64,000 nucleotides of DNA from Marsupella aquatica (taxonomy: Eukaryota; Plantae; Marchantiophyta): NCBI GenBank assembly GCA_973895155.1, contig OZ316892.1, forward strand, positions 386,917 to 450,916. Direction: 5' to 3'. Shown piece by piece: positions 16,335 to 39,684 of this stretch. Position numbers and translations under genes: made by a program. Position 1 is the stretch's first letter, and every line of letters begins with the position of its first letter. A model generated the notes under the pieces. That model was not told the origin of the DNA, did not search any database, and saw only the letters and a list, made by a program, of their open reading frames with translations.

Positions 16335-16490
16335 TGTGATGCCTAGACAGGAATCACTCGGCCGGTTAAGTGGGTAAAGCAGGAAGGCACCCTAGGAACA
16401 CCTTAGTATAGGGACAAAACAAGGAAAATATAAACAATTAGGGGCAACCATGGAACCCGGGCAGAGGCCGGAGGTAAGGCTGAGGGTGAA
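16335..16490 (+). repeat. LTR A, first 156 bp only (remainder lost by deletion)
   Basis: Matches the LTR start, then a 13-bp filler and a jump into pol. Confidence 0.9.
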
Positions 16491-16503
16491 GGATTTCAAG
16501 GAA

Positions 16504-16814
16504 ATCAAGGATTTTGCCAAGCTAGCTTTACCATTAACCAATATGCTCAAGGCAGGAGCAGACTTCGAACCCACACCCGAACGAGTCACAGCGGTGGTAG
16601 AATTAAAGCAGATGTTAGTAGAGGCCCCAGTCATGATAGCACCGGACTGGAACAAAGATTTTCATGTTTTTGTAGATGTCTCGGGCTTCTGTATTGGCTC
16701 AGTACTAAGTCAGTTGGATGAGAAAGGAAGGGACCATCCCATATACTTCGCAAGCCGTCAGCTTGCCGATGCCGAACGGAACTACTCTACCACGGAAAGA
16801 GAAGCATTAGGAGT
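16504..16814 (+). pseudogene. pol: pol fragment (RT connection/RNase H N-terminus)
   Basis: IKDFAKLALPLT...FHVFVDVSGFCIGSVLSQ...NYSTTEREALGV, matching 34645-34955. Confidence 0.92.
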
Positions 16815-17310
16815 TGTGATGCCTAGACAGGAATCACTCGGCCGGTTAAGTGGGTAAAGCAGGAAGGCACCCTAGGAACACCTTAGTATAGTGACAAAAC
16901 AAGGAAAATATAAACAATTAGGGGCAACCATGGAACCCGGGCAGAGGCCGGAGGTAAGGCTGAGGGTGAAAACCCGATTAGGGTTAGGGCGCGTTAAGCG
17001 TCGGCGGCTAGGAAGGATCAACGGGAAGAAGGACCGGCAGAGGAGAGGGGTAAGGAGCGCTTGCAGGAGATGGTGGCTCATTTGCGAGCACGAACTAGGC
17101 AGACGACTACGGGAGGCCAACTACTGTCAGCTGCTTAGGCAAGCACTCGGGGAGAGAGTAGATACCGACGATCGACCTAAGGAGGGTATGAGCAACATCA
17201 ATCAAGCGGCACATTTCTGGGGATGCCTGTTCGAACGGGCAATTGAGTACATCAAGACTTACGAGGACGAGGAATCAGAAAGGGCAGCTCGAGAACGGCA
17301 GGAGCTCGCT
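16815..17310 (+). repeat. LTR B, 5' 496 bp, interrupted by insertion of LTR C
   Basis: TGTGATG start; ends with TCGCT, which recurs after LTR C. Confidence 0.92.
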
Positions 17311-17425
17311 TGTGATGCCTAGACAGGAATCACTCGGCCGGTTAAGTGGGTAAAGCAGGAAGGCACCCTAGGAACACCTTAGTATAGGGACAAAACAAGG
17401 AAAATATAAACAATTAGGGGCAACC

Positions 17426-20400
17426 ATGGAACCCGGGCAGAGGCCGGAGGTAAGGCTGAGGGTGAAAACCCGATTAGGGTTAGGGCGCGTTAAGCGTCGG
17501 CGGCTAGGAAGGATCAACGGGAAGAAGGACCGGCAGAGGGGAGGGGTAAGGAGCGCTTGCAGGAGATGGTGGCTCATTTGCGAGCACAAACTAGGCAGAC
17601 GACTACGGGAGGCCAACTACTGTCAGCTGCTTAGGCAAGCACTCGGGGAGAGAGTAGATACCGACGATCGACCTAAGGAGGGTATGAGCAACGTCAATCA
17701 AGCGGCACATTTCTGGGGATGCCTGTTCGAACGGGCAACTGAGTACATCAAGACTTACGAGGACGAGGAGTCAGAAAGGGCAGCTCGAGAACGGCAGGAG
17801 CTCGCTCGATTGTGGGAGCTGCAGAAGACGGCTTTCTTAGGAGGCGAACTCATCAAGGACGAGTTCCTGTGGACGCCTACTTCCAATCAACTCGACGATC
17901 TTCTGTTTTGCAAAGACAGCGTCGTCGGCATCCGAGAGGCCATCAAGAACTGCAACGACATACACTGGGAATTAAAGGGTAGCACGGAAAGGTGGACCCA
18001 GGCAACGGTGCTAGGAGAAACCTCCACAGCAGCAGAGATGAAGAGGAAGGGGGCCGTCAACGATGAAGCCACCCCGGCAAAAAGAACGAGGTCGGCGGCA
18101 CCAAAGAGGCCAGCCGAGCAGCAGAGCAGGAGGCAGGGAGAAGCCGAAGAGGAGGAGGTCGATCCCATCAAGGCCATTCCAACCAGGGATGACACCTGGA
18201 AGGGCTGGGCGGCAACCCTACCGGTGGAGGTGCAACTACATTTTGCACGGGAGGAGGATGCATGCTTTACGGCCATGCAGACCAAGAAGTACCAAGGCTT
18301 CATGGCCGGATCCGGCTTGGAGGCCTTTGTAAGATTACCATGGCTGAAGCCGGAGGTACCGGAGTCAGACCTATTAGAATTCGTGGGGTCATGGGAACCC
18401 GAGACCAATTGCACGAGGATATATGGGAAGGATTTCTATCTTACTCCCAAGGTAATTGCCGAAGTGTTTGGCTTGCCGATAGGCAATAAGACCAAAGTTG
18501 ATACCAGGAAGACCCTGCCTGACAAGGAGTTCCGGTCATTCCCCGGGCCATCAACGAAGAATGGCTTCTTCCGGAACACCTGCACCAACCCGCACATAGG
18601 AGAGATGATCGACTTCTTGCGGGTGACCATGCATTGTAACTTGCCGAGGGCAGAGATCGGCAAGGCACAGGTCTATCTGGCAGAAAGGCCAGACCCAAGC
18701 CGGGACTACAACGGGTACCTCCTCAACCAATTGAAGAAGATCTTAAAGGAGGAGCAGCAGGTAATCGGCATGGGGAGCGTGTCACGGCTTGGCTATCACA
18801 TGCCGCTGTTGTGCCGGTATGCCAGAGGTCAGACTTTTGCCCCGGTACTTCCCCTGCAGGTAAGGGCACCCGAGGAAGCTCCAACGCCGAGGCCGTTGGC
18901 TGAGAAGCCTCAACCACCTGTTAGTCCTACGATCGAGCAGGTGTTTAGGCCCAGGAAGGAAGACTTGCCGATGCAGCAACCAGGCATGCAGAGTCTGCTG
19001 AAACTACTGGAGAAAGAAAAGAAATCGGCATCGGCAACAACAACGGCAACGGCAACAATGCAGGACACTACTACAGAGGTAGGCCTACACCGGCTCACAA
19101 GAGAAAACCCCTTTGCTGGAGACAAGGAGAGAATCAGGCCAGAATCCAAGCCAGGTGTTCGAATGTACGTGGGAACCTCAAGCTCCGAATCTGAGGCAGA
19201 ATTGCCTGAAGCTCCTACCGACGAAGAGGAGAGGGAGAAGCCGGACGTCCAAGAGGTAGAGGAGGCAGTGGAGGACTGCAGCCATGATAATTCCGGCTAT
19301 GGGTCGGACCATCACGTTCCAGGAGTAAGGACCTGTGGCTGGTTTGTCCCCACACTTCCAAGGGTAGTGCGAGGGGACCCCAACCAGCAGAGTAGCCCTG
19401 AGTCTCCCCCACCAGATGTTGCTCCCCCGAGCTTCGACGGCATAAAACAGACGGTGCAGGAATTTCAGGAGCGAATCAAGCAGGAGGAGGAGGCCGCCCT
19501 GGCTAAGGAAAAGGATTTACCAGGAGGAGATTGGCCGGAGGACATCAGGCGGCTAGCCAAAAAAGGAAGCAAACCTCTAGCCACGATTGAAGAGATCCGC
19601 AGGACGGCTTGGGAGCAGAGGCCGCGATGGGCGATGCCGATCACTTCTACTTACTCCACCTACGCTAAGAATAGAGCCATGGAGTATGGTGAGATGTGTG
19701 GGGAACTTGCGCTCGGCATCTTTGGAGAGGAGTTGGAAGTAGGACCCTTTTTCCATAGGGAGCAGTTGGAGAAGCACCAATTAGAAGAAGCGGTGGCTTT
19801 AGAGAGAAGCAAGAAGGACGAGGTCATTCGGCGGCTTAGGAGGATGGAAGCCGAGATTGAAGATCTAAGGGCGGCCAAGAAAGCCCAAGATGAACTGCGG
19901 ATTAAACGACATAAGCTGAACATCATGCAGGGGCAGTTGGACACCGCGCAGGCTGATAATCAGAATATCAAGGATAAACTGACTCAGACGCAGGAAGAGT
20001 TGGCCGACACGATCAAAGAGAGGGAGAAGTGGAAGCAAGAGCTGAAGAATACAGAGGAGGCCCACATAACAGCCAACAGCCGGGCCATGGCGGAGACCCA
20101 AAGAAAGGAATGGGCGTTGAAAGGGGAGCTCGAGAAAATCCGCGGAGCCCTTGAGCAGAAGGAGGCCGAGTTAGGGAAATCCTATCAAGGGATTATGGCG
20201 CTGCAGCAGGAGCTTGCGTCCCTGACGGCCAGCTTCAAGGCCGACCTAAGGGAGAAGGACGAGATGCTCGAACAGACTTACGCCAAGATGAACCAGATGG
20301 AGTCTGTCATCATTGCAGAGCTCGACAAGGAGCTAAGAGCAACCCAGGAGGAGAGGGCTACCTTGAAGAAGGAATTGGAGGAAGCCCACAGGGAGCAGGA

Positions 20401-21049
20401 GGAGGCCAAAAACGAGCTGGAGGGGGCACGTAAGGACCTGGATGAAACCCAAGAGGAGTTGGAGGAAATCACGAGGAAGATGGAGAACCTACAGCGGCCG
20501 GCCGACAACCAAACAGAGCGGCTGAAGAAACAAGCCGCAGTATTTAAATGCTTAGCTGCAGCAGGTCCATCTCCCGTTGGGACAAACCAGTTACCAGGGG
20601 TGGTAATTGCCGAAGGACAAGCCGCGCCAACTGCACCAGTGCCGGAAGTAAGTGGGAAGGGGAAGGGACCAGCTGCCGAGCCACCAACGAAGAAGAAGCG
20701 GAAACCTTCAGGGTCAAGGAGTAATACGACTTCACAGGCCGTGGTGATCAAGGAGGTAGACCCAGCACCGACCCCAGACAGGGTCACGGCTAAGGATCCA
20801 ACTACCCTAGGGGAAGGGGAGGCCGAAGCCGAGGGAGTGGCTGAAGCCGAAGCCGTGGGAGTGGCTGAGGCCGAAGCCGTGGGTATTGCCGAGGCCGGTG
20901 TCGAGGCTGAACCCGAAGGTGGACCCAGTCAGGCCGATGGAGAGTTGACTCAGTCAAGGGCAGGTAATCTGTCAGAGAATGAACCTACGGCAGTGGCTGA
21001 GGAGGAAGTGTTGGGGGCGTCCATTGAGGATCCACCACCAGTGTCGTGA
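17426..21049 (+). CDS. LTR-encoded 1207-aa accessory protein (basic N-terminus, PMD/Transposase_32-like motif, acidic linker, long coiled coil, acidic tail), intact
   Basis: Open for 3.6 kb from an ACCATGG start at LTR position 116; LLEFVGSWEPETN..YGKDFYLTPKVIAEVFGLPIG; heptad-rich E/K/Q/L region ~19760-20545. Confidence 0.88.
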   Translation: MEPGQRPEVRLRVKTRLGLGRVKRRRLGRINGKKDRQRGGVRSACRRWWLICEHKLGRRLREANYCQLLRQALGERVDTDDRPKEGMSNVNQAAHFWGCLFERATEYIKTYEDEESERAARERQELARLWELQKTAFLGGELIKDEFLWTPTSNQLDDLLFCKDSVVGIREAIKNCNDIHWELKGSTERWTQATVLGETSTAAEMKRKGAVNDEATPAKRTRSAAPKRPAEQQSRRQGEAEEEEVDPIKAIPTRDDTWKGWAATLPVEVQLHFAREEDACFTAMQTKKYQGFMAGSGLEAFVRLPWLKPEVPESDLLEFVGSWEPETNCTRIYGKDFYLTPKVIAEVFGLPIGNKTKVDTRKTLPDKEFRSFPGPSTKNGFFRNTCTNPHIGEMIDFLRVTMHCNLPRAEIGKAQVYLAERPDPSRDYNGYLLNQLKKILKEEQQVIGMGSVSRLGYHMPLLCRYARGQTFAPVLPLQVRAPEEAPTPRPLAEKPQPPVSPTIEQVFRPRKEDLPMQQPGMQSLLKLLEKEKKSASATTTATATMQDTTTEVGLHRLTRENPFAGDKERIRPESKPGVRMYVGTSSSESEAELPEAPTDEEEREKPDVQEVEEAVEDCSHDNSGYGSDHHVPGVRTCGWFVPTLPRVVRGDPNQQSSPESPPPDVAPPSFDGIKQTVQEFQERIKQEEEAALAKEKDLPGGDWPEDIRRLAKKGSKPLATIEEIRRTAWEQRPRWAMPITSTYSTYAKNRAMEYGEMCGELALGIFGEELEVGPFFHREQLEKHQLEEAVALERSKKDEVIRRLRRMEAEIEDLRAAKKAQDELRIKRHKLNIMQGQLDTAQADNQNIKDKLTQTQEELADTIKEREKWKQELKNTEEAHITANSRAMAETQRKEWALKGELEKIRGALEQKEAELGKSYQGIMALQQELASLTASFKADLREKDEMLEQTYAKMNQMESVIIAELDKELRATQEERATLKKELEEAHREQEEAKNELEGARKDLDETQEELEEITRKMENLQRPADNQTERLKKQAAVFKCLAAAGPSPVGTNQLPGVVIAEGQAAPTAPVPEVSGKGKGPAAEPPTKKKRKPSGSRSNTTSQAVVIKEVDPAPTPDRVTAKDPTTLGEGEAEAEGVAEAEAVGVAEAEAVGIAEAGVEAEPEGGPSQADGELTQSRAGNLSENEPTAVAEEEVLGASIEDPPPVS

Positions 21050-21764
21050 CGGTGCAAGGGCGCCGTTCCTTTTAGGGAGGGCGGACGTGGAGGGAGGAGG
21101 CGTGAGTGGGCAGGGCGGGCGCGGATCTCCATGTTTAGGATTAGGATCAGAACCAGGAGCGGCCCTGACACTTAGCTTAGTGGGATTGCGGTCCCACTGG
21201 TAGGAGCAACACTTGTGCTCCTGCCTTGCTGTACATAGGTAGATTCGGGCAAGTAGATTACTGTTAAGTAGATTAGGCTTACGATGCAAAGAATGGCGGA
21301 TCCACTACCAGGATAAGTACCTGGGCAGCGGGGAGCTCAGGGCCTCTTCTTTAGCAAGTTTTTAGTTTGCACCAGCCGGGCTGGGATCAAGTAGTACGAG
21401 AAGCTCTCGGTTAGTCATACAGTGACCCTTGTGTATATTCATGTTTCCTCATGCCTAAGAGCTGAATAGAGTTGGCCTCACGGCTTAGTTCGTAGAACTT
21501 GTGTATGAGATGTACTGTTTGTATGGCAAGTGCATGGTATGACTCAGTCAGAATGAGTCATTTTGCTATTTGTGTGTCGCATTAACTTGTGTGAAGAGTG
21601 CCCACATCAACAGAAGGAAGGAAAGTAAGCAGGGGAGTGAGAGTTGGATGTGTCGAGCTGAGAGAGGTCTTAGCGGCTTAACCAAGCCTATTGGGGATCA
21701 TTCCGGCGGCGGAATCCAAACATACCTAACAAAACGGAGGGGAAGACAGGGGAAGATAGGGGAA

Positions 21765-21779
21765 GGCCTATATTAGGCC
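21765..21779 (+). promoter_or_regulatory. candidate LTR TATA box (TATATTA) within the palindrome GGCCTA-TAT-TAGGCC; present in every LTR 3' part
   Basis: TATA-like motif ~200 bp from the LTR end; the position is inferred, not mapped. Confidence 0.4.
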
Positions 21780-21867
21780 GGCTACGTATCTCATGACCTG
21801 ATGAAGGATCTGTCCAGTATATGTGTGTAAAATGTTAATAGTAGTAGTAGAAGGTTAGCAGCGTCCC

Positions 21868-24800
21868 ATGCCGCTAAGCCGCGGAAACGGCCTCGCCAAG
21901 CACGAAACCTGCGAGAATCGGCTTGAGCTGGGGGGTTTCTTGGGTTTAGGGAGCCATGGGACGCACCACATCGCTCGATTGTGGGAGCTGCAGAAGACGG
22001 CTTTCTTAGGAGGCGAACTCATCAAGGACGAGTTCCTGTGGACGCCTACTTCCAATCAACTCGACGATCTTCTGTTTTTCAAAGACAGCGTCGTCGGCAT
22101 CCGAGAGGCCATCAAGAACTGCAACGACATACACTGGGAATTAAAGGGTAGCACAGAAAGGTGGACCCAGGCAACGGTGCTAGGAGAAACCTCCATGGCA
22201 GCAAAGATGAAGAGGAAGGGAGCCGTCAACGATGAAGCCACCCCGGCAAAAAGAACGAGGTCGGCGACACCAAAGAGGCCAGCCGAGCAGCAGAGCAGGA
22301 GGCAGGGAGAAGCCCAAGAGGAGGAGGTCGATCCTATCAAGGCCATTCCAACCAGGGATGACACCTGGAAGGGCTGGGCGGCAACCCTACCGGTGGAGGT
22401 GCAACTACATTTTGCACGGGAGGAGGATGCATGCTTTACGGCCATGCAGACCAAGAAGTACCAAGGCTTCATGGCCGGATCCGGCTTGGAGGCCTTTGTA
22501 AGATTACCATGGCTGAAGCTGGAGGTACCGGAGTCAGACCTATTAGAATTCGTGGGGTCATGGGAACCCGAGACCAATTGCACGAGGATATATGGGAAGG
22601 ATTTCTATCTTACTCCCAAGGTAATTGTCGAAGTGTTTGGCTTGCCGATAGGCAATAAGACCAAAGTTGATACCAGGAAGACCCTGCCTGACAAGGAGTT
22701 CCGGTCATTCCCCGGGCCATCAACGAAGAATGGCTTCTTCCAGAACACCTGCACCAATCCGCACATAGGAGAGATGATCGACTTCTTGTGGGTGACCATG
22801 CATTGTAACTTGCCGAGGGCAGAGATCGGCAAGGCACAGGTCTATCTGGCAGAAAGGCCAGACCCAAGCCGGGACTACAACGGGTACCTCCTCAACCAAT
22901 TGAAGAAGATCTTAAAGGAGGAGCAGCAGGTAATCGGCATGGGGAGCGTGTCGCGGCTTGGCTATCACATGCCGCTGTTGTGCCGGTATGCCAGAGGTCA
23001 GACTTTTGCCCCGGTACTTCCCCTGCAGGTAAGGGCACCCGAGGAAGCTCCAACGCCGAGGCCGTTGGCTGAGAAGCCTCAACCACCTGTTAGTCCTACG
23101 ATCGAGCAGGTGTTTAGGCCCAGGAAGGAAGACTTGCCGATGCAGCAACCAGGCATGCAGAGTCTGCTGAAACTACTGGAGAAAGAAAAGAAATCGGCAT
23201 CGGCAACAACAACGGCAACGGCAACAATGCAGGACACTACTACAGAGGTAGGCCTACACCGGCTCACAAGAGAAAACCCCTTTGCTGGAGACAAGGAGAG
23301 AATCAGGCCAGAATCCAAGCCAGGTGTTCGAATGTACGTGGGAACCTCAAGCTCCGAATCTGAGGCAGAATTGCCTGAAGCTCCTACCGACGAAGAGGAG
23401 AGGGAGAAGCCGGACGTCCAAGAGGTAGAGGAGGCAGTGGAGGACTGCAGCCATGATAATTCCGGCTATGGGTCGGACCATCACGTTCCAGGAGTAAGGA
23501 CCTGTGGCTGGTTTGTCCCCACACTTCCAAGGGTAGTGCGAGGGGACCCCAACCAGCAGAGTAGCCCTGAGTCTCCCCCACCAGATGTTGCTCCCCCGAG
23601 CTTCGACGGCATAAAACAGACGGTGCAGGAATTTCAGGAGCGAATCAAGCAGGAGGAGGAGGCCGCCCTGGCTAAGGAAAAGGATTTACCAGGAGGAGAT
23701 TGGCCGGAGGACATCAGGCGGCTAGCCAAAAAAGGAAGCAAACCTCTAGCCACGATTGAAGAGATCCGCAGGACGGCTTGGGAGCAGAGGCCGCGATGGG
23801 CGATGCCGATCACTTCTACTTACTCCACCTACGCTAAGAATAGAGCCATGGAGTATGGTGAGATGTGTGGGGAACTTGCGCTCGGCATCTTTGGAGAGGA
23901 GTTGGAAGTAGGACCCTTTTTCCATAGGGAGCAGTTGGAGAAGCACCAATTAGAAGAAGCGGTGGCTTTAGAGAGAAGCAAGAAGGACGAGGTCATTCGG
24001 CGGCTTAGGAGGATGGAAGCCGAGATTGAAGATCTAAGGGCGGCCAAGAAAGCCCAAGATGAACTGCGGATTAAACGACATAAGCTGAACATCATGCAGG
24101 GGCAGTTGGACACCGCGCAGGCTGATAATCAGAATATCAAGGATAAACTGACTCAGACGCAGGAAGAGTTGGCCGACACGATCAAAGAGAGGGAGAAGTG
24201 GAAGCAAGAGCTGAAGAATACAGAGGAGGCCCACATAACAGCCAACAGCCGGGCCATGGCGGAGACCCAAAGAAAGGAATGGGCGTTGAAAGGGGAGCTC
24301 GAGAAAATCCGCGGAGCCCTTGAGCAGAAGGAGGCCGAGTTAGGGAAATCCTATCAAGGGATTATGGCGCTGCAGCAGGAGCTTGCGTCCCTGACGGCCA
24401 GCTTCAAGGCCGACCTAAGGGAGAAGGACGAGATGCTCGAACAGACTTACGCCAAGATGAACCAGATGGAGTCTGTCATCATTGCAGAGCTCGACAAGGA
24501 GCTAAGAGCAACCCAGGAGGAGAGGGCTACCTTGAAGAAGGAATTGGAGGAAGCCCACAGGGAGCAGGAGGAGGCCAAAAACGAGCTGGAGGGGGCACGT
24601 AAGGACCTGGATGAAACCCAAGAGGAGTTGGAGGAAATCACGAGGAAGATGGAGAACCTACAGCGGCAGGCCGACAACCAAACAGAGCGGCTGAAGAAAC
24701 AAGCCGCAGTATTTAAATGCTTAGCTGCAGCAGGTCCATCTCCCGTTGGGACAAACCAGTTACCAGGGGTGGTAATTGCCGAAGGACAAGCCGCGCCAAC

Positions 24801-25218
24801 TGCACCAGTGCCGGAAGTAAGTGGGAAGGGGAAGGGACCAGCTGCCAAGCCACCAACGAAGAAGAAGCGGAAACCTTCAGGGTCAAGGAGTAATACGACT
24901 TCACAGGCCATGGTGATCAAGGAGGTAGACCCAGCACCGACCCCAGACAGGGTCACGGCTAAGGATCCAACTACCCTAGGGGAAGGGGAGGCCGAAGCCG
25001 AGGGAGTGGCTGAAGCCGAAGCCGTGGGAGTGGCTGAGGCCGAAGCCGTGGGTATTGCCGAGGCCGGTGTCGAGGCTGAAGCCGAAGGTGGACCCAGTCA
25101 GGCCGATGGAGAGTTGACTCGGTCAAGGGTAGGTAATCTGTCAGTAGGCGGGCCAACGGCAGTGGCTGAGGAGGAAGTGTTGGGGGCGTCCATTGAGGAT
25201 CCACCACCGGTGTCGTGA
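21868..25218 (+). CDS. junction-fusion version of the LTR protein (1116 aa; U5-derived ATG fused in frame to the truncated ORF)
   Basis: MPLSRG...THHI|ARLWELQ reads across the LTR-end/TCGCT junction; expression unknown. Confidence 0.55.
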   Translation: MPLSRGNGLAKHETCENRLELGGFLGLGSHGTHHIARLWELQKTAFLGGELIKDEFLWTPTSNQLDDLLFFKDSVVGIREAIKNCNDIHWELKGSTERWTQATVLGETSMAAKMKRKGAVNDEATPAKRTRSATPKRPAEQQSRRQGEAQEEEVDPIKAIPTRDDTWKGWAATLPVEVQLHFAREEDACFTAMQTKKYQGFMAGSGLEAFVRLPWLKLEVPESDLLEFVGSWEPETNCTRIYGKDFYLTPKVIVEVFGLPIGNKTKVDTRKTLPDKEFRSFPGPSTKNGFFQNTCTNPHIGEMIDFLWVTMHCNLPRAEIGKAQVYLAERPDPSRDYNGYLLNQLKKILKEEQQVIGMGSVSRLGYHMPLLCRYARGQTFAPVLPLQVRAPEEAPTPRPLAEKPQPPVSPTIEQVFRPRKEDLPMQQPGMQSLLKLLEKEKKSASATTTATATMQDTTTEVGLHRLTRENPFAGDKERIRPESKPGVRMYVGTSSSESEAELPEAPTDEEEREKPDVQEVEEAVEDCSHDNSGYGSDHHVPGVRTCGWFVPTLPRVVRGDPNQQSSPESPPPDVAPPSFDGIKQTVQEFQERIKQEEEAALAKEKDLPGGDWPEDIRRLAKKGSKPLATIEEIRRTAWEQRPRWAMPITSTYSTYAKNRAMEYGEMCGELALGIFGEELEVGPFFHREQLEKHQLEEAVALERSKKDEVIRRLRRMEAEIEDLRAAKKAQDELRIKRHKLNIMQGQLDTAQADNQNIKDKLTQTQEELADTIKEREKWKQELKNTEEAHITANSRAMAETQRKEWALKGELEKIRGALEQKEAELGKSYQGIMALQQELASLTASFKADLREKDEMLEQTYAKMNQMESVIIAELDKELRATQEERATLKKELEEAHREQEEAKNELEGARKDLDETQEELEEITRKMENLQRQADNQTERLKKQAAVFKCLAAAGPSPVGTNQLPGVVIAEGQAAPTAPVPEVSGKGKGPAAKPPTKKKRKPSGSRSNTTSQAMVIKEVDPAPTPDRVTAKDPTTLGEGEAEAEGVAEAEAVGVAEAEAVGIAEAGVEAEAEGGPSQADGELTRSRVGNLSVGGPTAVAEEEVLGASIEDPPPVS

Positions 25219-26139
25219 CGGTGCAAGGGCACCGTTCCTTTTAGGGAAGGCGGACGTGGAGGGAGGAGGCGTGAGTGGGCAGGGCGGGCGCGGATCTCCA
25301 CGTTTAGGATTAGGATCAGAACCAGGAGCGGCCCTGACACTTAGCTTAGTGGGATTGCGGTCCCACTGGTAGGAGCAACACTTGTGCTCCTGCCTTGCTG
25401 TACATAGGTAGATTCGGGCAAGTAGATTACTGTTAAGTAGATTAGGCTTACGATGCAAAGAATGGCTGATCCACTACCAGGATAAGTACCTGGGCAGCGG
25501 GGAGCTCAGGGCCTCTTCTTTAGCAAGTTTTTAGTTTGCACCAGCCGGGCTGGGATCAAGTAGTACGAGAAGCTCTCGGTTAGTCATACAGTGACCCTTG
25601 TGTATATTCATGTTTCCTCATGCCTAAGAGCTGAATAGAGTTGGCCTCACGGCTTAGTTCGTAGAACTTGTGTATGAGATGTACTGTTTGTATGGCAAGT
25701 GCATGGTATGACTCAGTCAGAATGAGTCATTTTGCTATTTGTGTGTCGCATTAACCTATGTGAAGAGTGCCCACATCAATAGAAGGAAGGAAAGTAAGCA
25801 GGGGAGTGAGAGTTGGATGTGTCGAGCTGAGAGAGGTCTTAGCGGCTTAACCAAGCCTATTGGGGATCATTCCGGCGGTGGAATCCAAACATACCTAACA
25901 AAACGGAGGGGAAGACAGGGGAAGACAGGGGAAGGCCTATATTAGGCCGGCTACGTATCTCATGACCTGATGAAGGATCTGTCCAGTATATGTGTGTAAA
26001 ATGTTAATAGTAGTAGTAGAAGGTTAGCAGCGTCCCATGCCGCTAAGCCGCGGAAATGGCCTCGCCAAGCACGAAACCTGCGAGAATCGGCTTGAGCTGG
26101 GGGGTTTCTTGGGTTTAGGGAGCCATGGGACGCACCACA
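21971..26139 (+). repeat. 5'-truncated LTR unit (LTR position 492 to end), 4169 bp, type-A ORF tail
   Basis: Starts TCGCTCGATTG, ends GCACCACA. Confidence 0.93.
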
Positions 26140-29100
26140 TCGCTCGATTGTGGGAGCTGCAGAAGACGGCTTTCTTAGGAGGCGAACTCATCAAGGACGA
26201 GTTCCTGTGGACGCCTACTTCCAATCAACTCGACGATCTTCTGTTTTGCAAAGACAGCGTCGTCGGCATCCGAGAGGCCATCAAGAACTGCAACGACATA
26301 CACTGGGAATTAAAGGGTAGCACAGAAAGGTGGACCCAGGCAACGGTGCTAGGAGAAACCTCCACGGCAGCAGAGATGAAGAGGAAGGGAGCCGTCAACG
26401 ATGAAGCCACCCCGGCAAAAAAAACGAGGTCGGCGGCACCAAAGAGGCCAGCCGAGCAGCAGAGCAGGAGGCAGGGAGAAGCCAAAGAGGAGGAGGTCGA
26501 TCCCATCAAGGCCATTCCAACCAGGGATGACACCTGGAAGGGCTGGGCGGCAACCCTACCGGTGGAGGTGCAACTACATTTTGCACGGGAGGAGGATGCA
26601 TGCTTTACGGCCATGCAGACCAAGAAGTACCAAGGCTTCATGGCCGGATCCGGCTTGGAGGCCTTTGTAAGATTACCATGGCTGAAGCCGGAGGTACCGG
26701 AGTCAGACCTATTAGAATTCGTGGGGTCATGGGAACCCGAGACCAATTGCACGAGGATATATGGGAAGGATTTCTATCTTACTCCCAAGGTAATTGCCGA
26801 AGTGTTTGGCTTGCCGATGGGCAATAAGACCAAAGTTGATACCAGGAAGACCTTGCCTGACAAGGAGTTCCGGTCGTTCCCCGGGCCATCAACGAAGAAT
26901 GGCTTCTTCCGGAACACCTGCACCAACCCGCACATAGGAGAGATGATCGACTTCTTGCGGGTGACCATGCATTGTAACTTGCCGAGGGCAGAGATCGGCA
27001 AGGCACAGGTCTATCTGGCAGAAAGGCCAGACCCAAGCCGGGACTACAACGGGTACCTCCTCAACCAATTGAAGAAGATCTTAAAGGAGGAGCAGCAGGT
27101 AATCGGCATGGGGAGCGTGTCGCGGCTTGGCTATCACATGCCGCTGTTGTGCCGGTATGCCAGAGGTCAGACTTTTGCCCCGGTACTTCCCCTGCAGGTA
27201 AGGGCACCCGAGGAAGCTCCAACACCGAGGCCGTTGGCTGAGAAGCCTCCACCACCTGTTAGTCCTACGATCGAGCAGGTGTTTAGGCCCAGGAAGGAAG
27301 ACTTGCCGATGCAGCAACCAGGCATGCAGAGTCTGCTGAAACTACTGGAGAAAGAAAAGAAATCGGCATCGGCAACAACAACGGCAACGGCAACAATGCA
27401 GGACACTACTACAGAGGTAGGCCTACACCGGCTCACAAGAGAAAACCCCTTTGCTGGAGACAAGGAGAGAATCAGGCCGGAATCCAAGCCAGGTGTTCGA
27501 ATGTACGTGGGAACCTCAAGCTCCGAATCTGAGGCAGAATTGCCTGAAGCTCCTACCGACGAAGAGGAGAGGGAGAAGCCGGACGTCCAAGAAGTAGAGG
27601 AGGCAGTGGAGGATTGCAGCCATGATAATTCCGGCTATGGGTCGGACCATCACATTCCAGGAGTAAGGACCTGTGGCCGGTTTGTCCCCACACTTCCAAG
27701 GGTAGTGCGAGGGGACCCCAACCAGCAGAGTAGCCCTGAGTCTCCCCCACCAGATGTTGCTCCCCCGAGCTTCGACGGCATAAAACAGACGGTGCAGGAA
27801 TTTCAGGAGCGAATCAAGCAGGAGGAGGAGGCCGCCCTGGCTAAGGAAAAGGATTTACCAGGAGGAGATTGGCCGGAGGACATCAGGCGGCTAGCCAAAA
27901 AAGGAAGCAAACCTCTAGCCACGATTGAAGAGATCCGCAGGACGGCTTGGGAGCAGAGGCCGCGATGGGCGATGCCGATCACTTCTACTTACTCCACCTA
28001 CGCTAAGAATAGAGCCATGGAGTATGGTGAGATGTGTGGGGAACTTGCGCTCGGCATCTTTGGAGAGGAGTTGGAAGTAGGACCCTTTTTCCATAGGGAG
28101 CAGTTGGAGAAGCACCAATTAGAAGAAGCGGTGGCTTTAGAGAGAAGCAAGAAGGACGAGGTCATTCGGCGGCTTAGGAGGATGGAAGCCGAGATTGAAG
28201 ATCTAAGGGCGGCCAAGAAAGCCCAAGATGAACTGCGGATTAAACGACATGAGCTGAACATCATGCAGGGGCAGTTGGACACCGCGCAGGCTGATAATCA
28301 GAATATCAAGGATAAACTGACTCAGACGCAGGAAGAGTTGGCCGACACGATCAAAGAGAGGGAGAAGTGGAAGCAAGAGCTGAAGAATACAGAGGAGGCC
28401 CACATAACAGCCAACAGCCGGGCCATGGCGGAGACCCAAAGAAAGGAATGGGCATTGAAAGGGGAGCTCGAGAAAATCCGCGGAGCCCTTGAGCAGAAGG
28501 AGGCCGAGTTAGGGAAATCCTATCAAGGGATTATGGCGCTGCAGCAGGAGCTTGCGTCCCTAACGGCCAGCTTCAAGGCCGACCTAAGGGAGAAGGACGA
28601 GATGCTCGAACAGACTTACGCCAAGATGAACCAGATGGAGTCTGTCATCATTGCAGAGCTCGACAAGGAGCTAAAAGCAACCAAGGAGGAGAGGACTACC
28701 TTGAAACAAGAACGGGAGGAAGCCCAGAAGGAACTAGAGGAGGCACGCAAGGACCTGGATGAGACCCAGGAGGAGTTGGAGGAAATCACGAGGAAGATGG
28801 AGAACCTCCAGCGGCGGGCCGACAACCAAACGGAGCGGCTGAAGAAACAAGCCGCAGTATTTAGGTGCTTGTCTTCATCAGGCCCAACTCCAATTGGGGC
28901 AACCAAGTTACCAGGAGTGGTACTGGCCGAAGAAAAAGCCGCGCCAACTGCACCAGTGCCGGAGGTAAGTGGGAAGGGGAAGGGACCAGCTGCCGAACCA
29001 GAAAAGAAGAAAAAGCGGAAACCTTCAGGGTCAAGGAGTAATCCGACTCCACAAGCCGTGGTGACCAAAGAGGTAGAACCAGCACCATCCTCCGACATGA

Positions 29101-29396
29101 ATACGGCAATAGATCCCGCTATGATCACAGGTAGGGATGGTGCGGCCCAAGCCGAACTACTCAATAAGGAGGCCAGTATTCCAGATCCGCCTCTTGAGCA
29201 GGCCGGGGAGACCGTAGCCGAGGCTGAGGCCGTAACCGATTCTCGAGCCGATGCCGACGCCGATGGTGGACCCAGTCAGGCCGATGGAGAGTTGACTCAG
29301 TCAAGGGCAGGTAATCTGTCAGGGAATGAGCCTACGGCAGTGGCTGAGGAGGAAGCGTTGGGGGCGTCCATTAAGGATCCACCACCGGTGTCGTGA
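26037..29396 (+). CDS. junction-fusion version of the LTR protein (1119 aa, type-B C-terminus)
   Basis: Open frame; tail RCLSSSGPTPIG... differs from type A. Confidence 0.55.
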   Translation: MPLSRGNGLAKHETCENRLELGGFLGLGSHGTHHIARLWELQKTAFLGGELIKDEFLWTPTSNQLDDLLFCKDSVVGIREAIKNCNDIHWELKGSTERWTQATVLGETSTAAEMKRKGAVNDEATPAKKTRSAAPKRPAEQQSRRQGEAKEEEVDPIKAIPTRDDTWKGWAATLPVEVQLHFAREEDACFTAMQTKKYQGFMAGSGLEAFVRLPWLKPEVPESDLLEFVGSWEPETNCTRIYGKDFYLTPKVIAEVFGLPMGNKTKVDTRKTLPDKEFRSFPGPSTKNGFFRNTCTNPHIGEMIDFLRVTMHCNLPRAEIGKAQVYLAERPDPSRDYNGYLLNQLKKILKEEQQVIGMGSVSRLGYHMPLLCRYARGQTFAPVLPLQVRAPEEAPTPRPLAEKPPPPVSPTIEQVFRPRKEDLPMQQPGMQSLLKLLEKEKKSASATTTATATMQDTTTEVGLHRLTRENPFAGDKERIRPESKPGVRMYVGTSSSESEAELPEAPTDEEEREKPDVQEVEEAVEDCSHDNSGYGSDHHIPGVRTCGRFVPTLPRVVRGDPNQQSSPESPPPDVAPPSFDGIKQTVQEFQERIKQEEEAALAKEKDLPGGDWPEDIRRLAKKGSKPLATIEEIRRTAWEQRPRWAMPITSTYSTYAKNRAMEYGEMCGELALGIFGEELEVGPFFHREQLEKHQLEEAVALERSKKDEVIRRLRRMEAEIEDLRAAKKAQDELRIKRHELNIMQGQLDTAQADNQNIKDKLTQTQEELADTIKEREKWKQELKNTEEAHITANSRAMAETQRKEWALKGELEKIRGALEQKEAELGKSYQGIMALQQELASLTASFKADLREKDEMLEQTYAKMNQMESVIIAELDKELKATKEERTTLKQEREEAQKELEEARKDLDETQEELEEITRKMENLQRRADNQTERLKKQAAVFRCLSSSGPTPIGATKLPGVVLAEEKAAPTAPVPEVSGKGKGPAAEPEKKKKRKPSGSRSNPTPQAVVTKEVEPAPSSDMNTAIDPAMITGRDGAAQAELLNKEASIPDPPLEQAGETVAEAEAVTDSRADADADGGPSQADGELTQSRAGNLSGNEPTAVAEEEALGASIKDPPPVS

Positions 29397-30317
29397 CGGT
29401 GCAAGGGCGCCGTTCCTTTTAGGGAGGGCGGACGTGGAGGGAGGAGGCGTGAGTGGGCAGGGCGGGCGCGGATCTCCACGTTTAGGATTAGGATCAGAAC
29501 CAGGAGTGGCCCTGACACTTAGCTTAGTGGGATTGCGGTCCCACTGGTAGGAGCAACACTTGTGCTCCTGCCTTGCTGTACGTAGGTAGATTCGGGCAAG
29601 TAGATTACTGTTAAGTAGATTAGGCTTACGATGCAAAGAATGGCGGATCCACTACCAGGATAAGTACCTGGGCAGCGGGGAGCTCAGGGCCTCTTCTTTA
29701 GCAAGTTTTTAGTTTGCACCAGCCGGGCTGGGATCATGTAGTACGAGAAGCTCTCGGTTAGTCATACAGTGACCCTTGTGTATATTCATGTTTCCTCATG
29801 CCTAAGAGCTGAATAGAGTTGGCCTCACGGCTTAGTTCGCAGAACTTGTGTATGAGATGTACTGTTTGTATGGCAAGTGCATGGTATGACTCAGTCAGAA
29901 TGAGTCATTTTGCTATTTGTGTGTCGCATTAACTTGTGTGAAGAGTGCCCACATCAACAGAAGGAAGGAAAGTAAGCAGGGGAGTGAGAGTTGGATGTGT
30001 CGAGCTAAGAGAGGTCTTAGCGGCTTAACCAAGCCTGTTGGGGATCATTCCGGTGGCGGAATCCAAACATACCTAACAAGACGGAGGGGAAGACAGGGGA
30101 AGACAGGGGAAGGCCTATATTAGGCCGGCTACGTATCTCATGACCCGATGAAGGATCTGTCCAGTATATGTGTGTAAAATGTTAATAGTAGTAGTAGAAG
30201 GTTAGCAGCGTCCCATGCCGCTAAGCCGCGGAAACGGCCTCGCCAAGCACGAAACCTGCGGGAATCGGCTTGAGCTGGGGGGCTTCTTGGGTTTAGGGAG
30301 CCATGGGACGCACCACA
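26140..30317 (+). repeat. 5'-truncated LTR unit, 4178 bp, type-B ORF tail; serves as 5' LTR of internal region 1
   Basis: Same TCGCT junction; followed by the PBS. Confidence 0.93.
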
Positions 30318-30321
30318 TTTT

Positions 30322-30339
30322 TGGCGCTAGATGGAGGGG
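30322..30339 (+). promoter_or_regulatory. primer-binding site, probably tRNA-Asn
   Basis: TGGCGCTAGATGGAGGGG 4 nt after the LTR end; from memory, one mismatch to the complement of the plant tRNA-Asn(GUU) 3' end (TGGCGCTAGAAGGAGGGG). Confidence 0.75.
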
Positions 30340-30386
30340 GCATTTCTTAAGCCGTGAGATATGAAGTTAGAACGGAAGCGTAGGTA

Positions 30387-33300
30387 ATGACTGACCTTAC
30401 GCCGAGGGAAGAAAGAGTGATTCAACGGGAGAGAGCTCGACTGCAGCAGCTCACCGGGTGGCATGATACACAGCGACTGAGAGGGGCAGAAAGAGCTGGT
30501 AGCTCCGAAACTGGAAGTGGCGTCGAAGAAGACATACCAGAAGAAGAGTCGGTAAGGAGAAGTGAGTCTCCAACCGACATGGGGGAACCAGAGGCACGGC
30601 CAGACGAGAGGCCAGGGACCAGATTGAGCCAGCGGTCGCGCATACATTACAAGGCATTTCATGGGAGAGGAGATGAGGATCCGGACGAATGGTTGGATGA
30701 TTTCGAGGGAACCGCTGCAGCAAATGGAGAATTGGCCATCAAGATGCAGATTCTTCCCGGCCTGTTCAAGGGTGAGGCTAGGCCTTGGTACAGAGCATTA
30801 GATGTGGAAGATCAAGCCATCTGGGATATCTTCAAAACACTCTTTGTTAAGGAGTTTCGACCCATTGGAACTTCAGAACTAGCAGTGCTGAAGTTGGGAC
30901 AACTTCGGTTCAAGGAGAACAAATCCTTCAGGAAGTTCTTGCAACGCTTTCAGAAACTGGTAAGACGTACAAAGACCAATGCATCTGAAGGTATGCAACT
31001 TCAATGGTTGGTGAATGCTTTGCCACAGAAGATGAGTTTTGCAATTAGGAAGGAGAACCCGGAGACTTTAGCCGAAGCAATTAAGGATATTCAATTATAC
31101 ATTAATGCAGATATCACAAGCCGGAAGAAACAGCTTAAGTCTGAGAGTTCCTCATCAGAGGAGGGATCACCCCATAAGAAAAAAGATAAGAAGAAGAAAC
31201 ATCCCAAGAAGTCTAGAAGTGATAAGTCAAGCTCGGATAGTGGGAGTAGCAAGAGTGAGTCATCTTCTAGTTCTGAAGAAGAAAAAACTAGGAAAAGGAA
31301 GGGCAGAAGGAGAGGGAAGACGAAAGTCAAGATGGAGGCTAAGCCACCAGATAACATCGTAGCCCTTACCGAGCAACTTAAGGCTATCATTGCAGAGGTA
31401 AAACCAAAGAAGAAGGTAGTACAGGAGGATAGCTCTGTATGGTGTGCCTTATGTTATAAAACCGGACACCATAAAGATGCGTGTCCTAAGCTTAATACTA
31501 ATCATGTTCGGCATGTGGCCGAGATCAGACCATGTCAGGGAGAAGTAGAGTACTTTTTGGGAGATGCCGCTGATAGTGTTTTCGGCATCAGTGAGACTGG
31601 AGCACGAGACCTATCCAACAGACCTGCATCTCTGTGGTCAGGGTTAAGGAACAATCCAGGAGAGATGTATCCTCGGATTATTCAGAACCCGTCAGTACCT
31701 CCTAGGCCGAATGTGCAAAGATTTGCGGCGTGCTATAATTGTGGTCAACCTGGCCATTTTGCTAGAGAATGCCCGAATGCACGCAAACAGGGTGATGGAC
31801 AACCAGCTCAGCTATGTATGGGATGTCGACAGGAAGGTCATATGCTAGGGCAATGTCCTACTTGGTTGGCAGGCCTGGCCGCAAATCATAAGCTTTTGCC
31901 GATCAAGATCTTACCGCCAGGTACTACCCCCGGAGGAGTTCAAATCAACCACATCGAACTAGGATGGCAAGAGGATGCCGAGGCAGAGTTCGTACCATCT
32001 GATGATGAGGCCGAAGCCCTATCAACCTTCTCAGAGGAGGATTTAGATCATGATTGCTACCGGGTCTCTACTCGATCTACCAGAAGGAAGGAAAGGTGGG
32101 ATGGGCTGGCCAAAAATAAAGGGAAGGTTACGGAGGAAAGGATCGACTCTTCGTCAACATCAACAGAAGGAGAAGGGAGGGCTCCGGCAATACAGGTAAG
32201 CCATGAGCCCACCAGTGAAACCAATCCTTCACAAGATAGCGACTTCAATCGAGATCATCCTAAGTTGTTCTACCCCTCTGTTACGGCTAGTGTTAAGGAA
32301 CAACTAAGAGAATTAGAAACCCTGGAGAATACCGAAGCCATTGCCAAGGATGTAAAACGAGCAAAAGCATTGTTTGCTTCGGAAGACCCAACAGCTGTGG
32401 AGACTAGCGTGGCAAAACTGGCCGAATCCAAGACGGAAACACCACCAGAAGAGAAGCCGATTGTTCCCTATGACCTGGCTAAAGATGTACTAGAATCTAG
32501 AGTCTCGGCAACAGTAGGTCAACTATTGAAAAATAGCCCGTACTTCCGGAAGCAATTAAGGAAGGCTATTCTCGGCAAGCCGAGATTACCCAAGGTAGCA
32601 ACCAGATCCGACGTACTAATGATAGAAGAAGATCAAGGAGCCCCAGCATTACCATTAATGATTCAAGGAGAATTATTACTACGGGTACCCATCGATGGAG
32701 GATCAGGGGTATGTATTATGATTGATTCAACAGCAAAAGGGTGGGGTCTAACACCGGAGATGACTGGAAGAGTGTTGAACATGGCCAATGGATATCAGGT
32801 CATTCCGACGGGAGTGTTAACCGGCATCAAGACAGAGATAGGAGGTATCTTCTTTAGCATTAACTATGTAGTAATGAAGCCGGTAAATCCTACGTCATTC
32901 CGGCTATTGATTGGTAGGCCATGGCTGTACCTAGCCGAGGTAATAGAAGATTGGGGTAAAAAGCAGTTCACTTTCGGGACCCCCTCTATCACGGTATCCT
33001 GGGACACTAAGGATGACCATAGGAAAAGCATAAGGGAAGTAGATGGGTACGACAGTGGACTGGAGTCAGCCGATGAAGTACGTTGGTTAGAATGCCTCAC
33101 TAACCTAACCGAAGAAGGTGTCTTTGGACCAGAGGTAGCCCCCAGCGGATTATGGCAAGAACCAATGGAAGGTGACTTGGAAGAAGAAGACGAAGAGGTC
33201 GAGGACTGCTTTACAATAGAATCCACCTTTTTAGCTGCAATTCCGGAGGAAGTAAAGGATGTAGACCAATTGGATGAAACGGCTAAGTGGGGAGCAGTAG

Positions 33301-33464
33301 CAGGGACAGTGGATTTTCTGCAGGCGTTGTGGCAGAGCCGACGGGGTCCACAACGCCATCGATCATCGGCAAGGAATAAATACCAAGGGATCGGCATACA
33401 AGCCGATTACGAGGGCAGAACAAATCGAGGCCCTATTAGAAGCCGAGAGAGCACAGCGGCCTAA
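30387..33464 (+). CDS. gag: Gag-protease ORF, copy 1 (open; the C-terminal ~28 aa arise from a 1-nt deletion near 33377)
   Basis: Retrotrans_gag-like FHGRGDEDPDEWLDDF..GEARPWY; three CX2CX4HX4C knuckles; protease IDGGSG and LLIGRPWL. Confidence 0.92.
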   Translation: MTDLTPREERVIQRERARLQQLTGWHDTQRLRGAERAGSSETGSGVEEDIPEEESVRRSESPTDMGEPEARPDERPGTRLSQRSRIHYKAFHGRGDEDPDEWLDDFEGTAAANGELAIKMQILPGLFKGEARPWYRALDVEDQAIWDIFKTLFVKEFRPIGTSELAVLKLGQLRFKENKSFRKFLQRFQKLVRRTKTNASEGMQLQWLVNALPQKMSFAIRKENPETLAEAIKDIQLYINADITSRKKQLKSESSSSEEGSPHKKKDKKKKHPKKSRSDKSSSDSGSSKSESSSSSEEEKTRKRKGRRRGKTKVKMEAKPPDNIVALTEQLKAIIAEVKPKKKVVQEDSSVWCALCYKTGHHKDACPKLNTNHVRHVAEIRPCQGEVEYFLGDAADSVFGISETGARDLSNRPASLWSGLRNNPGEMYPRIIQNPSVPPRPNVQRFAACYNCGQPGHFARECPNARKQGDGQPAQLCMGCRQEGHMLGQCPTWLAGLAANHKLLPIKILPPGTTPGGVQINHIELGWQEDAEAEFVPSDDEAEALSTFSEEDLDHDCYRVSTRSTRRKERWDGLAKNKGKVTEERIDSSSTSTEGEGRAPAIQVSHEPTSETNPSQDSDFNRDHPKLFYPSVTASVKEQLRELETLENTEAIAKDVKRAKALFASEDPTAVETSVAKLAESKTETPPEEKPIVPYDLAKDVLESRVSATVGQLLKNSPYFRKQLRKAILGKPRLPKVATRSDVLMIEEDQGAPALPLMIQGELLLRVPIDGGSGVCIMIDSTAKGWGLTPEMTGRVLNMANGYQVIPTGVLTGIKTEIGGIFFSINYVVMKPVNPTSFRLLIGRPWLYLAEVIEDWGKKQFTFGTPSITVSWDTKDDHRKSIREVDGYDSGLESADEVRWLECLTNLTEEGVFGPEVAPSGLWQEPMEGDLEEEDEEVEDCFTIESTFLAAIPEEVKDVDQLDETAKWGAVAGTVDFLQALWQSRRGPQRHRSSARNKYQGIGIQADYEGRTNRGPIRSRESTAA
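33311..33370 (+). promoter_or_regulatory. putative -1 frameshift signal, copy 1
   Basis: G_GAT_TTT then GGCGTTGTGG...CCACAACGCC stem. Confidence 0.7.
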
Positions 33465-34955
33465 CTCTCAGGAGCAAGAGGTGGATGAGATGGACAGACA
33501 CGATCTAGAGCCAAGGCAGGAAGGGGAGCCGACCACTAATTCAAAACCGAATAGACCGGTAAGGGGACAATCTATGGACACCAAGGAAGGGACCGACTCG
33601 GCTAGTCCAGCCGAGATCCCAGTTTATGGAGGTATGAGATTAGAGAGACTGGAAGCCGAACTGGACCCGAATTTGAAGAAGCAGATTAATATGATCCAAG
33701 CACGGCAATATCGGAAGCTCGACTTAGGAGAGGGAAGAGAACTGAACTTAGGGAGAAACCTAGCACCTGAGCTCGAGAAAGAGATCAGTGACTTATTGAT
33801 TGAATTTCAGGATGTGTTTGCATGGAGTCACCAAGATCTAAAGGGAGTAGATCCAACACTAGGGGAACATCGAATTGATCTCATGTTAGGAGCCAAATCA
33901 TTTCGACAACCAATTCGAAGGATGAACCCGAAGTATTCCCTGCTGGTCAAAACAGAAATCGACAAACTAGTGGAAGCTGGATTCATCACTCCAGTCCTGC
34001 ATTCAGACTGGGTGTCTCCAATTGTGATAGTTCCCAAGAAAGCTGGACCCGATGGTAAACCCAAGATCCGGGTTTGTCAGGATTACAGGAAGCTGAATGA
34101 AGCAACATTAAAAGACCATTTTCCTTTACCGTTTACTAATATGGTACTAGACATGGTAGCCAGTCATGAACTATATTCATTCATGGATGGATACTCTAGT
34201 TATAACCAAATCAGGATTCGGCAGGAAGACCAAATCAAGACGGCCTTCATCACGGAATGGGGGATCTATGTCTTCAATCGTATGCCGTTTGGACTCTGCA
34301 ACGCACCAGCTATGTTCCAACGATTAATGGTGAACATTTTTCATGATTACTTGAGAAAGTTCATGGAAATCTTCATTGATGACTTTGCAGTATTCGGGAA
34401 GGCATCGAAACATGCTAAATACCTCAGGAAAACCTTCATGAGATGTAGAGAGGTGGGTCTCAAGTTACACCCAGATAAATGTTTTTTTGCAGTAACCGAG
34501 GGGGTGCTACTAGGTCACAAGGTATCAAGGAAGGGCATTGAGATTGACAAAGGTAAGCTAGCAGTATGGCTAGATATCATGCAACCTAAGAACATAAAGG
34601 ATGTAAGATCCTTCTTGGGATGCATTGGTTACTATCGCCGGTTCATCAAGGATTTTGCCAAGCTAGCTTTACCATTAACCAATATGCTCAAGGCAGGAGC
34701 AGACTTCGAACCCACACCCGAACGAGTCACAGCGGTGGTAGAATTAAAGCAGATGTTAGTAGAGGCCCCAGTCATGATAGCACCGGACTGGAACAAAGAT
34801 TTTCATGTTTTTGTAGATGTCTCGGGCTTCTGTATTGGCTCAGTACTAAGTCAGTTGGATGAGAAAGGAAGGGACCATCCCATATACTTCGCAAGCCGTC
34901 AGCTTGCCGATGCCGAACGGAACTACTCTACCACGGAAAGAGAAGCATTAGGAGT
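33379..34955 (+). pseudogene. pol: pol copy 1: RT plus partial RNase H, truncated exactly at the start of LTR D; no integrase or PPT
   Basis: CQDYRKLN, MPFGLCNAP, FIDD; EREALGV joined to TGTGATG; upstream 1-nt deletion breaks the frame after the shift site. Confidence 0.93.
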
Positions 34956-39615: not shown

Positions 39616-39619
39616 TTTT

Positions 39620-39637
39620 TGGCGCTAGATGGAGGGG
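39620..39637 (+). promoter_or_regulatory. primer-binding site, copy 2
   Basis: TGGCGCTAGATGGAGGGG after LTR D. Confidence 0.75.
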
Positions 39638-39684
39638 GCATTTCTTAAGCCGTGAGATATGAAGTTAGAACGGAAGCGTAGGTA

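Follow-up and report, generated by a model that had tools for sequence, protein, structure and literature searches.

A gene-length open reading frame within the long terminal repeat of a liverwort gypsy retrotransposon, with a predicted VANC21-like domain

The window analyzed here (64,000 nucleotides of the liverwort Marsupella aquatica, NCBI GenBank assembly GCA_973895155.1, contig OZ316892.1, positions 386,917 to 450,916 of the forward strand) holds a 41.8-kb array (16335-58155 of the window) made of a single, self-nested gypsy retrotransposon family, whose 4,660-bp long terminal repeat (LTR) carries an open reading frame (ORF) under purifying selection. The gene lies wholly within the LTR; taking the evidence jointly, we consider it probable that it entered the U3 region by a shift of the LTR boundary, and that its product, predicted to be VANC21-like, counters silencing. 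Whole LTR genes are known from retroviruses such as mouse mammary tumor virus (MMTV); the gene here exceeds 3.3 kb, and relatives of the element suggest how it reached the LTR. Solo-LTR formation normally ends the coding capacity of an element; here the gene would be left behind.

The array was resolved by self-BLAST and a junction map. Writing L for the LTR (4,660 bp) and I for the internal region (6,224 bp), the array reads L1-156, I4329-4639, L1-496, L1-4660 (copy C), L492-4660 twice, I1-4639, L1-4660, I1-6224, L1-4660 and L852-4660 twice, and it includes one complete unit of LTR, primer-binding site (PBS), gag, pol, polypurine tract (PPT) and LTR at 34956–50471. Its LTR parts are listed below (TSD, target-site duplication):

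16335..58155, + strand: the gypsy-family array, self-nested and tandem, with the near-TSD CAGAG / TAGAG at its limits
16815..17310, + strand: left part of the LTR copy hit by copy C, LTR positions 1-496 (junction map)
17311..21970, + strand: copy C, full length at 4,660 bp, which sits as a solo LTR in a further LTR copy, with a 5-bp TSD (TCGCT)
21971..30317, + strand: two tandem partial LTRs, positions 492-4660, of differing haplotypes
34956..39615, + strand: copy D, a full LTR serving as 5' LTR in the complete unit, with the ORF intact at 35071-38694
45840..50471, + strand: full LTR copy F, 3' LTR, with the ORF split by a 1-bp deletion
50472..58155, + strand: two tandem partial LTRs, positions 852-4660, five transitions apart

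The LTR ends (TGTGATGC and GCACCACA) match each other as inverted sequences in seven of eight positions. The start motif occurs in six places with five distinct left flanks, the PPT among them, and the end motif in seven places with four distinct right flanks, two of the places preceding the PBS. An earlier sequence-only reading had set the LTR limits by the TG..CA ends, the PBS at 30322 and 39620, the PPT at 45827 and a TCGCT duplication around copy C; all of these held, with one correction to the last, as the target of copy C was another copy of the same LTR, in which TCGCT represents LTR positions 492-496. No two copies in the array are identical; they differ mostly by transitions, which is evidence against misassembly. 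Two public runs showed LTR bins that were all deeper than any internal bin (median ratio 3.6 and 4.0), a coarse measure that gives no copy number, was not clean in the other two of the four runs and is only a hint of an excess of LTRs. The loose-end tables of the runs listed no host flanks at the LTR start, and the non-coding LTR showed no DNA similarity to any of the 79 loci used for comparison. Junctions of self-insertion type are of three kinds within 16335-58155, each found twice (LTR end to LTR 492, LTR end to LTR 852, and internal 4639 to LTR start), and other runs contain further LTR-into-LTR joints; such junctions could stem from targeting to the family's own copies, from autointegration or from unequal exchange. 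The LTRs are also mosaic, with two haplotypes at LTR 3001-3750 that lie ~15-20% apart (copies C, B, D and F vs. E, G and H) and are confined to the 3' end of the ORF, the remaining LTR being ~99% identical.

The features that bear on the gene itself are as follows:

17426..21049, + strand: LTR-internal ORF, 1,207 codons from the first ATG, probable start Met87 at 17684
17403..17409, + strand: TATA-like AATATAA (LTR 93-99), unchanged in an 80%-identical old copy, a candidate promoter of the ORF
18158..18865, + strand: globular domain (aa 245-480) related to Transposase_32, its fold predicted to resemble that of VANC21
19766..20545, + strand: proline-free, Glu/Lys-rich segment (aa 781-1040), likely a coiled coil by composition, with a weak ATG16 match below the cut-off
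4547..4984, + strand: remnant of an older LTR (positions 1-438, identity 80%) that a CACTA-like end interrupts

The ORF occupies LTR 116-3739 in both intact copies (17426-21049 in C and 35071-38694 in D, with 25 amino acid differences), and is frameshifted by 1 bp in the third full LTR (copy F, 45840-50471), while the longest stop-free frame among 300 Markov-shuffled LTRs reached 317 aa. The indels within the ORF are in frame in copy E (21, 6, and 24 bp), amount to a 1-bp deletion in F, and to a 10-bp deletion in G/H; in the four runs, one of nine LTR indels fell into the ORF, though it makes up 78% of the LTR (among the indels listed, 12 of 23 rows). The ratio of nonsynonymous to synonymous substitution rates (dN/dS) between C and E was 0.16 over LTR 852-3000 (p 8e-4) and 0.40 over LTR 3001-3500 (p 0.0013; shifted frames 0.95 and 1.99), with further pairs at 0.34 (C/D), 0.30 (C/F), 0.31 (D/F), 0.21 (E/G), and 0.51 (B/D). 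The ORF is thus under purifying selection, with a pairwise dN/dS mostly of 0.15–0.5, and not near 1, the value that the sequence-only reading had named, together with absent transcripts, as a refutation. The sequence-only reading had also placed a sense ORF at LTR 116-3739, intact in copies C and D, and had proposed that the gene survives solo-LTR formation, and both points are borne out, the second by the intact ORF of the TSD-flanked solo copy C. What it took for a 1207-aa gene stands as an ORF of 1,207 codons; the protein, judging by substitution patterns, probably starts at Met87 (17684) and has 1,121 aa, because codons 1–86 carry no coding signal. Differences from the old copy at 4547-4984 fall 17/19/15 by codon position before Met87 and 0/0/5 after it (p 0.004). 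Among the run variants, 2 of 10 are synonymous ahead of Met87 and 13 of 21 behind it (p 0.054), and the first Met of the homolog P0128 lies near the position of Met87.

Pfam returned weak coiled-coil matches only for the ORF protein. Searching with aa 40-480 over 1.84 billion representatives gave 21 matches, of which P0134 is probably spurious, and Calypogeia was the source of two among the nine ORF homologs checked. There was no match among 7,994 candidates in a word-index search with the whole ORF, no longer homolog in the alignment search (which covered 1,379-3,935 aa), and no relative in the viral contigs or the first metagenome scan. A profile built from 16 of the 21 matches together with two cluster members matched sense ORFs downstream of pol in 5 of the 79 loci (E 6e-4 to 0.12). 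In profile-profile comparison, aa 245-480 matched extra ORFs from four close relatives (probability 94.9%) as well as Athila-type extra ORFs (77.6%, E 1.9e-5). Transposase_32 (PF20167) was matched by 4 of the 18 alignment members, Athila-type relatives match it below the cut-off, and the Atlas scores were 0.89 for Transposase_32 and 0.87 for ATHILA (scores under 0.9 being leads). By profile comparison, the ORF is distantly related to the extra ORFs of Transposase_32 type found in Athila-like elements.

The AlphaFold2 model of the domain, built from 18 sequences, had a mean predicted local distance difference test score (pLDDT) of 82.4 and a predicted template modeling score (pTM) of 0.81; a first model from a looser alignment had been poor (pLDDT 50) and was discarded. 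Foldseek ranked the VANC21-DNA structure first (probability 0.82; next 0.03), VIA-align gave VANC21 a Z of 8.8, and among 48,161 chains VANC21 was the sole one with a Z of at least 5 (Z 8.7, root-mean-square deviation 4.3, 210 aligned residues; next 2.0). As modeled, the domain has the VANC fold; no viral fold, PDB sequence or sequence-profile match was found for it. The protein contains basic motifs resembling nuclear localization signals, and it has no transmembrane segment (maximum 19-residue hydropathy 0.98), the feature by which an env-like membrane protein would be recognized. VANC21 is described as binding tandem motifs in VANDAL21 and causing family-specific methylation loss (PMC10398659), and PMC13547354 predicts both VANC and the Athila domain to oligomerise via coiled coils. 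VANC21 being the only solved-structure match, the model suggests a DNA-binding, anti-silencing role for the ORF protein; we put forward the anti-silencing function tentatively, and another nuclear DNA-binding role as a somewhat weaker candidate. The effect may run in either direction, since the host protein MAIN is reported to share the VANC fold. Doubtful, and still worth weighing, is the view that the anatomy is as described and the protein serves another purpose, such as directing integration to copies of its own family, bringing the integration complex into the nucleus, or self-repression: the array has three different junctions of self-insertion type and other runs have more, VANC-type target arrays are absent, and MAIN promotes silencing with the same fold, but high copy number alone also predicts self-insertion and the sole solved structural neighbor is an anti-silencing DNA-binding protein.

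How the gene came to lie in the LTR was approached through the internal region and its relatives. The internal features are:

30322..30338 (second copy at 39620), + strand: PBS, with a 4-nt spacer after the LTR end
30387..33464, + strand: gag ORF, 1,025 aa (Retrotrans_gag and zf-CCHC, Pfam)
33490-34998: ORF with reverse transcriptase (RT) and ribonuclease H (RH), partner of the gag ORF at 30387..33464, cut by an LTR junction
42789..45851, + strand: pol ORF with RT, RH, and integrase (INT), 1,020 aa, one RNase H (Pfam)
45805..45839, + strand: pre-PPT motif and PPT, of the same type as the LTR-adjacent cassette of relatives

The element has gag followed by RT-RH-INT between LTRs with a PBS and a PPT, the arrangement of Ty3/gypsy elements; gag and RT-RH-INT are separate ORFs, and no copy in the window has both intact. 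The PBS at 30322 and 39620 is putatively of the tRNA-Asn type; REXdb gives tRNA-Asp or tRNA-Asn for the PBS of OTA/Athila. The purine tract (45827-45839) precedes LTR copy F, and the pol frame runs through the PPT and stops 12 nt into the 3' LTR, which leaves the internal region without room for an extra gene. A Pfam scan of pol found no additional RNase H and no chromodomain match. In these features and in its 5-bp TSDs (TCGCT; CAGAG/TAGAG), the element agrees with OTA/Athila as defined in REXdb, and it departs from that definition in the place of the extra ORF, which is internal there and inside the LTR here, and its TSD differs from the 4-bp NCGN TSD of Phygy. By the REXdb table, a 5-bp TSD and an absent additional RNase H fit Athila and not Phygy; the Tat lineages Z1/Z2 also lack the additional RNase H (PMC10508981). 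The closest named pol matches are liverwort proteins (Calypogeia 62-64%, Riccia ~52%; angiosperm elements ~41%). In an RT-RH tree of 93 rows (68 of the 79 loci, 24 proteins and the window, with no REXdb references), which like the RH-INT tree below was a quick IQ-TREE run with SH-aLRT support only, the element groups with the Calypogeia rows (99), sister to the loci L001 and L003 (joint support 95), among liverwort and unnamed rows, with the seed-plant Athila-like rows elsewhere in the tree. Together, pre-PPT motif and PPT make up a cassette of ~40 bp (45803-45845) that is conserved between families: many otherwise unrelated contigs of the four runs share it, and the likeness to other families ends 2-6 bases past the LTR start.

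Twenty loci were looked at closely, and the order of PPT and extra ORF could be judged in 12. Eight of these (L002, L004, L010, L012, L017, L020, L022, and L023) have the PPT cassette after the extra ORF, and their LTRs, where measurable (L002, L010, L012, L017), are ~1-1.6 kb long. With a motif model trained on these eight loci, the pol-end cassette of the window scored 23.1 bits (0 of 60 shuffles as high), and the top site lay right after pol in L003 (0/60 shuffles), L021 (3/60), and L001 (5/60). In each of these three loci TG, a TATA-like box, and the ORF come after the pol-end cassette. In L001, the first nine bases past the cassette recur in exact inverse near the LTR end that precedes the PBS. 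The RH-INT tree separates the window and these three loci from the rest by a single branch (support 95, one change, 0/500 shuffles); L014, with an ambiguous PPT position, was left unlabeled in it. L004 has a second cassette before its internal ORF (0/60 shuffles), with cassettes at 3362-3400 and 5330-5360 flanking the ORF, and is a possible intermediate state. Because 8 of the 12 judged loci keep the ORF before the PPT and three in the element's own clade have the PPT right after pol, the LTR boundary likely moved upstream once, as far as motif order and tree can tell. Forms with a short LTR and an internal ORF, of the kind that the sequence-only reading would have accepted, as dispersed copies, for its refutation, do occur, only in other, more distant families, where they likely represent the ancestral state. 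Two candidates were rejected along the way: a hairpin and purine run right after the ORF stop, considered as an old PPT, was outside the top four sites of the motif model, and a 6,190-bp repeat of L012 with a 1,267-aa ORF, considered as a second giant LTR, has its PPT after the ORF and is a circular overlap. The internal extra ORFs of the Athila-like L010 (6849-10865) and L012 (1037-4837) have 1,339 and 1,267 stop-free codons, and no transmembrane segment was found in either.

Rather unlikely, in our estimate, is that the ORF entered the LTR through nested self-insertion followed by deletion, with no switch of the PPT. The family does insert into its own LTR, the cassette that L002 has after its ORF is closely similar to the pol-end cassette and first LTR bases here, and no remnant of a post-ORF cassette was found; against this, the order of pol, ORF, and short non-coding tail matches that of the relatives, and L004 has cassettes on both sides of its ORF. 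By analogy with the relatives, the ORF very likely occupies U3. It is improbable that it lies instead in R/U5, where a promoter near LTR 93 would start the genomic RNA and the ORF would be its first cistron, like a 5' extra ORF: the TATA-like site at LTR 93 is conserved in the old copy, and in L001, L003, and L021 TATA boxes stand between LTR start and ORF, ~330-460 bp from the former and 160-310 bp from the latter, but the homologous ORFs are 3' of pol in every relative judged, TATA-like sites are also present 150-200 bp short of the LTR end, a placement shared with the short LTR of L002, and a minus-strand strong-stop DNA of ~4.5 kb would be required. That the 4.66-kb unit combines a short LTR with internal sequence and owes its copies to tandem duplication or misassembly has been largely refuted, for although the window is a complex tandem array and the 6.2-kb ORF-bearing repeat of L012 proved to be a circular overlap and no LTR, the unit has the same TG start at six places and CA end at seven, a TSD around its exact length, PBS and PPT at its limits, copies all separated by substitutions that are mostly transitions, and, by the coarse depth measure, LTR bins all deeper than internal bins in two runs.

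Under the favored reading of a U3 gene acquired by a boundary shift, events would have run as follows. In the ancestral arrangement kept by relatives, the homologous ORF would have lain between pol and a downstream PPT, and the one relative with a second cassette upstream of the ORF may resemble the next step; plus-strand priming would then have switched to the upstream PPT site, likely once in this clade. By the established mechanism, reverse transcription duplicates sequence past the PPT into both LTRs; the LTR observed here starts right after the PPT at the pol end and contains the whole ORF, which is under purifying selection and intact in a solo LTR. The ORF would have its own promoter near the LTR start and be translated from Met87, and its product, predicted to be nuclear and to combine a VANC/PMD-type domain with a coiled coil, may bind the family's DNA and loosen its silencing, possibly also in trans, from solo LTRs.

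Several observations weigh against this reading or parts of it. The dN/dS values of C/B (0.65) and of C/E over LTR 3580-3736 (0.73) were both not significant, the pairs are not independent, shifted-frame controls cover three comparisons only, transition bias alone gave ~0.55-0.6 in all three frames in the old-copy comparison, and run variants were synonymous in just 8 of 21 cases, a weak result. The contigs of L001 and L003 end inside the ORF and that of L021 218 bp past it, so a downstream cassette may still exist there and the 3' LTR ends are unseen; the motif scores of L001 and L021 were equaled by 5 and 3 of 60 shuffles; and past the ORF in the LTR of the window, the motif model turned up no trace of a second PPT cassette. 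The window protein itself has no match to Transposase_32 (PF20167) above the Pfam cut-off, and the likeness to VANC is modest, at 9% identity and a Foldseek E of 0.12. The non-coding LTR has no enriched 6-8-mers, unlike VANC targets, and no VANC-type tandem arrays, only a 10-bp unit repeated 2.8 times and a 34-bp unit repeated 2.3 times (two copies). Finally, a shared fold shows no function, and PMC13547354 reports the VANC fold for host MAIN, which acts in silencing.

The element resembles Athila-type elements with 3' extra ORFs (Transposase_32, PF20167 / ATHILA, PF03078) in the homologous globular domain plus coiled coil, the sense ORF downstream of pol, the 5-bp TSD, and the lack of an additional RNase H. 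It differs from them in that their ORF is internal, before the PPT, with LTRs of ~1-1.6 kb, while here it is inside a 4.66-kb LTR, and its pol belongs to a bryophyte clade separate from the seed-plant Athila-like rows. Two PPTs have been ascribed to Athila. The products of MMTV sag and of nef of human immunodeficiency virus 1 (HIV-1) are much smaller than the ORF protein, retroviral, and unrelated to it, sag being a membrane protein. They are alike in having coding sequence in the LTR, where U3 has the whole sag ORF and part of nef (PMC12789967). With VANC21 of the Arabidopsis VANDAL21 (PDB 9lnj, 9lnk), the ORF domain shares its predicted fold over the whole domain (Z 8.7-8.8, 209-210 residues), at 9% identity and with no sequence-profile match, and both are transposon accessory proteins with a coiled coil (PMC13547354); unlike the ORF, VANC comes from a Mutator-like DNA transposon, and its targets are tandem motif arrays (PMC10398659), none of which were found here. 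The accessory genes of Retand and Grande (TRP28, gene23) are likewise 3' of pol and nuclear or predicted to bind DNA, with an own promoter in Grande, but they are antisense and internal, in elements with LTRs of 315-1,194 bp and an additional RNase H.

Extra ORFs are placed in the internal region by the plant reviews PMC7264820 and PMC6317226. By title or abstract opening, no ORF within a retrotransposon LTR was described in the full-text literature, a coverage that leaves out most subscription journals and the Repbase and REXdb sequences; no link between Transposase_32 and the VANC fold was found there either, and the VANC21 structure paper, which lies outside this coverage, may discuss related folds. 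The predicted VANC21-like fold makes the function of Athila-type 'env-like' extra ORFs testable and, as a model, favors DNA binding and the control of chromatin over a part as envelope protein. Speculatively, and resting on that model, the LTR of a bryophyte gypsy clade may be a self-contained anti-silencing gene, solo LTRs would keep both the promoter and a VANC-like trans-activator, and a shared VANC/PMD fold might explain Athila-type extra ORFs. If so, solo LTRs left by host recombination could keep the whole family active, and the long-unexplained Athila-type extra ORFs would gain a function through that shared fold.

Elsewhere in the window, the CACTA-like end at 4987 interrupts the old LTR copy, and downstream of it, up to 14750, are minus-strand matches to DUF4216 (9654-10460) and Transposase_21 (11733-13490) and an ORF with an NSD-type PHD finger (14091-14750); the other CACTA-like end was not found. 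A tandem repeat with a period of 578 bp lies at 60827-63716 (5 copies, 83% matches).

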